Positions 45 to 1,090 of a DNA stretch of 11,394 nucleotides are shown here, piece by piece (within the stretch, counting starts at the first letter, position 1; every line of letters starts with the position of its first letter). Both the position numbers and the translations under genes were made by a program. The stretch is from a virus (Duplodnaviria; Heunggongvirae; Uroviricota; Caudoviricetes). Location of the stretch: the IMG/VR virus record IMGVR_UViG_2663763232_000009. One strand, given 5' to 3'. The notes under the pieces were generated by a model, which was not told the origin of the DNA, ran no database searches, and worked only from the letters and a program-made list of their open reading frames with translations.

Positions 45-239
45 TTGGAGTCATTACCGTCATATGGAATAACAGTGGTTGATTCTTATAATCAAAAAAC
101 TATTCAGAAAGGAATAAATAAACTGATCTGTTATGGGGCTTACCAATATTCAGATGGCTCTTCGGAGTATGTTATTTATAAAGCATACCCAAATAGTCTT
201 GGTGAATTAATTAGTGAGTTTAAACCGATTAATGAGTGA
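45..239 (+). CDS. Hypothetical 64-aa ORF in the AT-rich leader region; doubtful gene
   Basis: ORF from the six-frame track. The frame has no ATG; the only possible starts are TTG at 45 and GTG at 75, and I see no convincing RBS. It overlaps the start of the next gene and lies in AT-rich DNA where random ORFs are common. It could instead be untranslated leader carrying a promoter (TATAAT-like hexamer at 87-92). Confidence 0.2.
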   Translation: MESLPSYGITVVDSYNQKTIQKGINKLICYGAYQYSDGSSEYVIYKAYPNSLGELISEFKPINE

Positions 240-246
240 ATGGAAA

Positions 247-1026
247 ATGAAATTATTTAATGTAATAACATTTTGTTGTGCTATTTTTGCTGGAAGCGCG
301 ATAGCTGATAATAAATTGCCAGATTGGCTTTCTACCTCAAAGAAAGATTATGATTTAGTAAGGGCATTCTATTTGTCTGGATTTGCTTCGAAAGCAATGA
401 ACAATCAATTTGGTTATCATTTGCCATCTGAGTTGGTTAATGATTTTAAAGATAATGAATTTGCTGCTCAGGAAAAATGGAACACAATTCCAATTGTGTA
501 TGGTGAAATAAAATCCATAAGAATGGTGAATAATAAACCAATTGTAGAGTTATTTACTCCAGGGGAAAATGCAACGCCACTAAATTATATCAAATTGAAA
601 ATATTGGATTCAAAGCAAGACTCTCTGTTAAAACTAAAAAAAGGGGATGATATATATGCAGTGTGCTCAGGTGCTAATTTTAGCTTAGTGCCAATTCTGA
701 GCAACTGCACTCCTGCAACAGACGTCATTGATGCTGCACTCTCTTTTTCTGGTGAATATATGTTCCCTGCTTTTGATTCTTTTTCGCCTACTAAGCAAAA
801 CGTCAAATATATATTCACAAATCAAGATCCTGTTCAGATGATGAATTTTATAGGGTACCTATCCTTAGTCGATACAACGAAGGATAAGAAAAAAATGGAT
901 ATGGTTCGTAAGTGTACGCCTTGGAAGCCGGAATGTTCACAACAATTCGTTGATGTAATGGAAGGATTTGATAGCATCATGTATAAATATGAGGGAGAAT
1001 TTAAAAATTACATAGAATTAAAATAG
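247..1026 (+). CDS. Secreted/periplasmic protein of unknown function with a cleavable N-terminal signal peptide; moron-like accessory gene (candidate superinfection-exclusion or conversion protein)
   Basis: Long ORF (214..1026 in the track). The probable start is ATG 247 (MKLFNVITFCCAIFAGSAIA/DNK), giving a classic signal peptide: short basic n-region, hydrophobic core, AxA signal-peptidase I site. ATG 232 is an alternative start. The mature part is hydrophilic with several Cys. By eye GC here is roughly one third, against about 45-50% for the rest of the window. The gene is followed by its own intrinsic terminator. No family recognised from sequence alone. Confidence 0.6.
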   Translation: MKLFNVITFCCAIFAGSAIADNKLPDWLSTSKKDYDLVRAFYLSGFASKAMNNQFGYHLPSELVNDFKDNEFAAQEKWNTIPIVYGEIKSIRMVNNKPIVELFTPGENATPLNYIKLKILDSKQDSLLKLKKGDDIYAVCSGANFSLVPILSNCTPATDVIDAALSFSGEYMFPAFDSFSPTKQNVKYIFTNQDPVQMMNFIGYLSLVDTTKDKKKMDMVRKCTPWKPECSQQFVDVMEGFDSIMYKYEGEFKNYIELK

Positions 1027-1055
1027 TATTTGAAAGGATAGTCAATTTAAGTTTT

Positions 1056-1090
1056 AAAAAAACGCCCATTAAAGGGCGTTTTATTGTTTT
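1056..1090 (+). terminator. Rho-independent (intrinsic) terminator downstream of the secreted-protein gene
   Basis: AACGCCC (1061-1067) and GGGCGTT (1074-1080) form a perfect 7-bp GC-rich stem around a 6-nt loop, followed by a T-rich tract TTTTATTGTTTT (1079-1090) and preceded by an A-run (1056-1060), so it could act in both directions. It lies 35 nt after the TAG stop at 1024-1026. Confidence 0.75.

Follow-up and report, generated by a model that had tools for sequence, protein, structure and literature searches.

A probable simC superinfection-exclusion gene of a P1-like phage-plasmid, with a predicted OB-fold-like domain and an IS1 composite insertion in the adjacent simB

The window, that is the whole stretch of 11,394 nucleotides that was analysed, opened on the terminal end of an IS1 copy, followed by a truncated simB, an undamaged simC, an intrinsic terminator, the late promoter LPsit and the tail operon pmgC-tub-pmgB-sit (Table 1). 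Its positions 53-11314 were collinear with positions 36468-47759 of phage P1 at 97.5% identity, and this window-long collinearity identified it as part of a P1-like phage-plasmid that begins in the sim region and continues into the operon for tail and baseplate. The AT-rich gene under study had been placed directly upstream of the tail operon by the first-pass annotation, and pmgC, tub, pmgB and sit were indeed the genes that come next.

Table 1. Features at the sim locus of the window (window coordinates)
Feature	Position	Strand	Basis
IS1 right terminal end (inverted repeat GGTAATGACTCC... read as complement)	1..52	+	Database matches
9-bp target-site duplication GTCATATGG of the IS1-flanked insertion	53..61	.	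Copies at both outer ends
simB 3' remnant, ~codons 51-111	53..239	+	SYGITVVDSYNQKT...PINE* = P1 SimB from residue ~53 on
simC CDS, 259-aa pre-protein, 29.5 kDa	247..1026 (incl. stop)	+	Identity to P1 SimC
Sec-type signal peptide MKLFNVITFCCAIFAGSAIA, predicted cleavage after A-I-A	247..306	+	Hydropathy profile, A-x-A motif
Central OB-fold-like domain, residues ~60-157, PF12869-related; Cys140 and Cys154	424..717	+	
C-terminal helical domain, residues ~158-259; Cys223 and Cys230	718..1023	+	Predicted helices
Intrinsic terminator AAAACGCCC-ATTAAA-GGGCGTTTT then ATTGTTTTAC	1059..1092	+	Hairpin scan, RNA folding
LPsit, P1 late promoter, tail operon start	1186..1204	+	P1 annotation (L001 4134-4152, offset 2948)
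pmgC, first gene of tail operon pmgC-tub-pmgB-sit	1236..1802	+	ORF, P1 annotation, collinearity

Comparison of the interval annotated as simB, simC and pmgC in the P1 genome (AF234172, 46512-47759) with window positions 53-1300 gave 99.0% nucleotide identity. The encoded protein shared 263 of 264 residues with SimC of P1 (GenBank AAQ14015), the sole difference being K225 here and N in P1 (264-aa numbering), and it matched PHROG 14355 over its full length (E 3.6e-187). The superimmunity gene simC had been named in the first-pass annotation as a mere precedent, and the gene proved to be simC proper, located at its P1 position. The accompanying remark that no family could be recognised and that the gene may be uncharacterised did not hold: simC is already known, being named in the P1 genome record and studied since the 1980s (papers from 1982 to 1990). 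The guess at a periplasmic superinfection-exclusion protein agreed with the function that the literature assigns to P1 simC. The best explanation overall is that a P1-like phage-plasmid here carries simC, its gene for superimmunity (superinfection exclusion), a reading to which we give a probability of about 0.9.

The low GC content first perceived by eye was borne out by computation. The GC content of simC was 33.6% (GC3 29.2%), compared with 45.3-48.6% for the seven downstream genes (GC3 42-52%). The lowest 877-nt stretch of the window began at position 171 (33.0%); 877-nt stretches starting beyond position 1100 had a mean of 47.4% (sd 2.4, minimum 41.5), the simC region lying about 6 sd lower. 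Homologues of simC found elsewhere were likewise at ~34% GC, against 48% in the adjoining tail genes. The strong terminator attributed to the gene was also recovered, as a hairpin at 1059-1082 with a 9-bp stem (5 GC pairs), a 6-nt loop and a T-rich tail. It was the only terminator-like site within positions 1-1400, and its RNA folded at -14.5 kcal/mol (z = -3.85), a stability reached by one of 200 shuffles. Owing to an A-run upstream of the hairpin, this terminator is potentially bidirectional. Every element of the initial observation was confirmed as real and beyond chance.

The longest open reading frame covered positions 214-1026 and opened at a GTG. Two other starts are in use for this gene: the P1 GenBank record begins simC at the ATG equivalent to window position 232 (264 aa), and RefSeq uses the ATG at 247, five codons downstream (259 aa). 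The latter, together with the MK start, was kept in the homologues that are 83% and 39% identical, and the former was replaced by AGG in the 39% homologue; translation therefore probably starts at ATG 247, which lies 8 nt beyond the stop codon of simB. The 259-aa pre-protein with a Sec signal peptide, as claimed beforehand, was present in the sequence: the N-terminus MKLFNVITFCCAIFAGSAIA/DNK begins with a charged MK, followed by a core of ~14 hydrophobic residues and by the A-I-A motif, and this region was the same as in P1 SimC, with its n-, h- and c-regions. By inspection, the signal peptide contained no lipobox ([LVI][ASTVI][GAS]C), as its sole cysteines, in ITFCC, do not fit this pattern, and the hydropathy profile predicted no transmembrane segment in the mature protein of ~27 kDa.

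In P1, simC is the last gene in the order simA-simB-simC, and the annotated promoters, which are predicted ones, are located upstream of simA (PsimA) and at the simA start (PsimB). The N-termini of SimA and SimB were also signal peptides, so that the entire sim operon codes for putatively exported proteins. The P1 cassette sits between the immI region (c4-icd-ant) and LPsit/pmgC; in the genome studied here, the link of simC to simA and immI was interrupted by an IS1 composite element, and simA and immI were present beyond this element in the matching record NZ_CP034659. The 3' edge of the variable cassette is marked by LPsit, ~100 nt past the simC terminator, and in phages without sim, homology to the window resumed at position 1184, two bases before LPsit. 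Such was the case of P7, RCS47 and MH422554, where the slot was filled by an alternative cassette of two genes encoding a DUF5384 protein and a lipoprotein whose match to TraT was weak and sub-threshold. Eight low-GC regions are reported to vary among P1-like phage-plasmids, simABC being one of them (PMC9603915), and our data support the view that simA-simB-simC form an AT-rich, exchangeable accessory cassette with the immI region on one side and the late tail operon on the other. The qualification of simC as moron-like could thus be retained in part. Aberrant GC content, patchy presence among relatives and a terminator of its own were found, and a promoter of its own was not; because simC comes third in an operon whose promoters lie upstream of simA and at its start, the term fits the whole cassette, not simC alone.

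The first 52 positions of the window were the only part of the query matched by thousands of E. coli records. In NZ_CP034659, a 454-kb E. coli ATCC 98082 plasmid that matched at 100%, a plus-strand IS1A transposase ends at this place and is oriented towards simC. The complete element of this record comprises corA, ysgD and a pseudogene between two inverted IS1 copies, and simB is its insertion site. The sequence GTCATATGG, which adjoins the IS1 end in the window, was found a second time at the far end of the element (L002, ~810-818) and occurs once in P1; such a 9-bp duplication at both ends is the hallmark of IS1 transposition. The insertion deprived simB of its start codon and signal peptide, and ~3.2 kb of IS1-corA-ysgD-IS1 DNA now lie between the sim promoters and simC.

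At such a distance from the annotated sim promoters, expression of SimC in this genome is doubtful, and the intact simC ORF may be weakly expressed or silent. The chances are nearly even that simC is here a silent passenger, stripped of the operon promoters by a polar IS1 composite insertion in simB and yielding no functional amount of SimC. Besides the length of the insertion and its target duplication, this is suggested by the location of the P1 promoters at or upstream of simA, with none directly upstream of simC, and by a scan of positions 1-246 that revealed no good plus-strand promoter site. This consensus scan was crude, however, and low expression could be provided by a promoter created at the junction or by read-through from the adjacent IS1, which reads towards simC. 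The ORF is also undamaged, and many intact plasmids carry the same allele. The first observations of the Sim phenotype were made with multicopy clones, so that a single-copy prophage simC cut off from its promoters may do little.

The profile and structure searches suggested in the first-pass annotation yielded PHROG 14355 and an OB-fold-like signal for the central part of SimC, and they left the C-terminal helical part without a fold match. The Pfam profile PF12869 (tRNA_anti-like) matched SimC residues 62-154 over profile positions 52-144 of 146, with an E-value of 1e-3 and a score of 19.1 bits that is below the gathering threshold of 23.5 bits. Three relatives found from SimC (P0012, P0014 and P0015) were accepted PF12869 members. 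One of them was P0012, a 121-aa 'OB-fold protein' of Enterobacter ludwigii with 35% identity to SimC over 97 residues (E 9.3e-9 in a search of 1.84 billion representatives). Structure prediction by AlphaFold2 gave an unusable model from the single sequence (pLDDT 31), and a 7-sequence alignment raised the mean pLDDT only to 60 (pTM 0.54), because the SimC family is tiny. This low-confidence model displayed the order helix, beta1-3, helix, beta4-5 and helical C-terminal domain; pLDDT was lower within the OB segment, and block means were mostly 60-88 from residue ~171 in the C-terminal domain. Its best Foldseek matches were the N-domain of LysRS and SSBs in the PDB, and 'tRNA_anti-like' and 'putative nucleic acid-binding lipoprotein' entries among viral models (BFVD). 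No fold match for the C-terminal helical domain stood out in the listed PDB and BFVD matches, which were dominated by OB-fold proteins. Residues ~60-157 of SimC resemble a divergent OB fold of the exported kind, near to PF12869, an assignment that is new here and that draws on profile, model and sequence comparisons. To our knowledge, PF12869 has no established function, and the match consequently accounts for the fold of SimC, not for its mechanism. Cytochrome P460, eIF4A and CD94, which were returned by a sequence search of the PDB, were discarded as chance-level matches (E 0.046 or worse), and searches of SimC against PADLOC and NCBIfam gave no match. The cysteines of the mature protein (140, 154, 223 and 230) were kept in full-length relatives, and the first pair (140 and 154) also in OB-only relatives; judging from this conservation, they would form two disulfides in the periplasm.

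The SimC family appeared very small, with 4 matches in 5.8 billion clustered proteins (word search) and 15 among 1.84 billion representatives. Only three of these matches were diverged full-length relatives, namely P0002 (83%), P0005 (39%) and P0014 (~28%), and a homology search seeded with P0012 returned P0012 alone. A distant P1-like contig (L006) carried a ~39%-identical SimC at the equivalent site, flanked by a SimB homologue upstream and pmgC downstream. Protein identities between the window and this contig were 40% for SimC, 51% for Sit, 61% for SimB, 70% for PmgB, 72% for PmgA, 78% for PmgC and 82% for Tub; for a closer relative (L005), they were 83% for SimC, 92% for SimB, 99% for PmgB and Tub, and 100% for PmgC. 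Among the proteins compared at the locus, SimC diverged fastest in both cases, which fits the expectation for an arms-race gene in conflict with incoming phages. OB-only relatives of SimC occupied accessory positions of unrelated temperate phages, an observation that is new here. In a P2-like prophage, the P0012 gene was flanked by the tail X/D genes and by a 530-aa gene that probably encodes the tape measure, and it was on the opposite strand; P0015, which has an N-terminal membrane anchor, adjoined divergent repressor-like HTH genes in a phage-like contig.

Superinfection exclusion is ascribed to the sim gene in a passage of PMC9177967. The P1 sim studies of Kliem and Dreiseikelmann (1989) and of Maillou and Dreiseikelmann (1990) are cited in PMC8546580 and PMC2409434, and P1 is reported to adsorb still to Sim-producing cells without infecting them; the title of the 1990 paper, as cited in PMC2409434, announces the purification of the processed Sim protein. 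By CRISPRi, simA, simB and simC were dispensable for lytic growth (PMC10695390). A block between penetration of the tail and passage of the inner membrane can be proposed: mature SimC would reside in the periplasm, stabilised by its two putative disulfides, and would intercept the genome-delivery machinery or the DNA crossing this compartment. Judging from the fold, the OB domain would most likely act by binding either the DNA itself or a tail component released on ejection, for which the Sit tape-measure/transglycosylase is a candidate. P1 Sit carries an SLT transglycosylase domain, so that inhibition of this enzyme by SimC, in the manner of the Spackle protein of phage T4, is one speculative model.

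An alternative reading of the same features is that SimC is mainly an envelope-modifying factor of lysogenic conversion, acting for instance on stress tolerance or altering the surface through ligand binding by its OB domain, and that exclusion is a side effect of overproduction. The need for multicopy expression to see the Sim phenotype would be compatible with such a role, as would the existence of exported PF12869 OB-fold proteins without established function and the fact that the P7-type alternative cassette, with its weakly TraT-like lipoprotein and its DUF5384 protein, also encodes envelope proteins. Against it, exclusion of P1 is the sole published phenotype, the relatives of SimC are found in phage accessory positions and not in host envelope operons, and the divergence of SimC far outpaces that of the adjacent genes, as would be expected under conflict with phages. 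We consider this alternative improbable. The last one, a low-GC ORF that is a host or plasmid housekeeping gene or arose by chance, apart from phage biology, can be dismissed with near certainty in spite of the label 'hypothetical protein' borne by the listed E. coli records in RefSeq. Among 5426 complete E. coli genomes, 128 contained simC, and of its 130 places 129 were on plasmids, those listed measuring 84-114 kb as P1-like phage-plasmids do. The gene is 99% identical to one that has been studied by experiment in P1, and a 39% homologue keeps its place beside simB and pmgC in a distant P1 relative.

The exclusion role of simC could be part of a broader phenomenon. It is possible, and at present a tentative proposal on the unlikely side, that SimC belongs to a wider, so far unrecognised class of exported PF12869-like OB proteins and is the first of them whose phenotype is known. 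Such proteins would be encoded by accessory genes of temperate phages and would act in the periplasm to keep the genome from entering. Their OB domain would seize either the end of the arriving DNA or a tail protein released on ejection, for example a tape-measure/transglycosylase, and small OB-only relatives such as P0012 and P0015 would do likewise for their own phages.

As a discovery, simC matters little, having been known since the 1980s. The residual value of the present analysis lies in the OB-fold (PF12869-like) assignment, in the relatives found across temperate phages and in a copy that is probably compromised by an IS1 composite insertion. Novel elements are the OB-fold likeness, the two cysteine pairs, the OB-only relatives, the fastest divergence at the locus and the splitting of simB by IS1. 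All listed simC records were labelled 'hypothetical protein' in RefSeq, and a known exclusion gene is hence invisible in the routine annotation of a phage-plasmid family that is widespread and carries resistance genes. The OB-fold assignment and the conserved cysteine pairs offer testable handles, namely the binding of DNA or of an ejected tail protein, and the location of OB-only relatives in phage accessory positions hints that part of PF12869 may be phage-exclusion proteins.

Among known systems, the closest is P1 SimC itself, which also corresponds to ORF2 of the sim region in M34382. It is the same gene, preceded by simB, followed by the terminator, LPsit and pmgC, and alike in low GC content and signal peptide; the differences are the single K/N substitution, the start set five codons further downstream and the splitting of simB by the IS1 composite element in the genome studied here. 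T4 Spackle, a periplasmic inhibitor of the gp5 tail lysozyme (PMC7677548), is comparable by analogy, as a small phage-encoded periplasmic protein that stops genome delivery after adsorption, and the P1 tail also possesses a transglycosylase, Sit; Spackle is however encoded by an early lytic gene, whereas sim belongs to an accessory cassette of a temperate phage. Searches of SimC against Pfam, PHROGs and PADLOC gave no match to a Spackle or Imm family, and neither a sequence nor a fold relationship to these proteins was observed. P22 SieA, T5 Llp and TraT of the F plasmid share with SimC the general property of being prophage- or plasmid-encoded envelope proteins that bar incoming DNA. SieA is an inner-membrane protein and Llp and TraT are outer-membrane lipoproteins, unlike SimC with its predicted cleavable signal peptide devoid of a lipobox, and no sequence similarity to any of the three was detected by Pfam, PHROGs, PADLOC and NCBIfam searches. 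Membership of the Llp/TraT lipoproteins was rejected on both grounds, and that of Spackle/Imm and SieA on lack of sequence similarity. The remaining comparison is with PF12869, which comprises exported or lipoprotein OB-fold proteins such as the 'putative nucleic acid-binding lipoprotein' of Klebsiella (PDB 3f1z). P0012, P0014 and P0015 open with a signal peptide or a membrane anchor, as SimC does with its signal peptide, and SimC differs from the PF12869 family in adding an N-terminal helix and a C-terminal helical domain of ~100 residues that carries the second cysteine pair.

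Divergence of the SimC protein (window 247-1026) was much more rapid than that of the structural proteins encoded next to it (window 1236-7150). When compared with its homologue in L006, a more distant locus carrying a related cassette, SimC displayed 40% identity versus 70-82% for PmgC, Tub, PmgB and PmgA. Next after SimC in divergence came Sit, with 51% identity to its L006 homologue; co-evolution of SimC and Sit would be compatible with the sequences compared, rather than shown by them.

In the P1 GenBank record, simC starts at the ATG equivalent to window position 232, which yields a protein of 264 aa and an overlap with the end of simB (window 232-249). 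Conservation among diverged homologues supported ATG 247 as the probable start, for a protein of 259 aa. Of three predicted ArgR boxes (PMC2409434), two lie side by side within simC and one where simA meets simB. The gene was carried by 128 complete E. coli RefSeq genomes and was labelled 'hypothetical protein' in all records listed, despite being one of the named and studied genes of P1.

The 52-aa SimA of P1 aligned to the N-terminal part of two longer exported proteins (179 and 215 aa) encoded by two related cassettes; a common signal peptide and the motif SSVKEICTDYTKYLGHVY were present in all three. P1 simA therefore appears to be what is left of a longer gene after truncation. In locus L005, the long version was located after simC and not before simB. 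As for simB, it was interrupted by a composite element consisting of two inverted IS1 copies flanking corA, ysgD and a pseudogene, which are genes of chromosomal type; both outer ends of this element were bordered by a 9-bp target duplication, GTCATATGG. The record matching the window comes from E. coli ATCC 98082 and is designated a 'plasmid', 454 kb in size; IS26 was also found nearby, suggesting that the P1-like replicon may belong to a large cointegrate.

Owing to its flanking A- and T-runs, the hairpin downstream of simC could stop transcription arriving from either side; no minus-strand gene converging on it was evident. Near the far end of the window, the megablast match to P1 and P7 ended at 11314, 80 bases short of the window end, and 11315-11394 may mark the start of the variable portion of the tail-fibre region.

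Locations of the features discussed, in the window and in the compared loci
Feature	Location	Remarks
Terminator hairpin	window 1059-1092	A-run on 5' side, T-run on 3' side
Composite element interrupting simB	window 1-61; L002 (NZ_CP034659) about 810-4061	~3.2 kb
P1 simA	L001 (P1) 2690-2848	
Counterparts of simA in related cassettes	L006 5059-5598; L005 1921-2568	
P7-type cassette in sim slot	L003 (P7) 2408-3472	same slot in L007, L008
OB-only SimC relatives (PF12869)	L009 7965-8330; L010 8001-8366; L011 6001-6465	

OB-only relatives of SimC were found to occupy accessory positions in other temperate phages. One of them lay on the opposite strand within the tail gene cluster of an Enterobacter P2-like prophage, and another adjoined divergent HTH repressor-like genes on a metagenomic phage-like contig. 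In P7-type phages, the sim slot itself was occupied by another cassette, with a GC content of 42.6% versus 48.2% for the tail genes. Its products, a DUF5384 protein that carries a signal peptide and a lipoprotein giving a weak, sub-threshold match (23.1 bits, cut-off 31) to the TraT surface-exclusion family, suggest that the slot may be a site for alternative exclusion or envelope modules.
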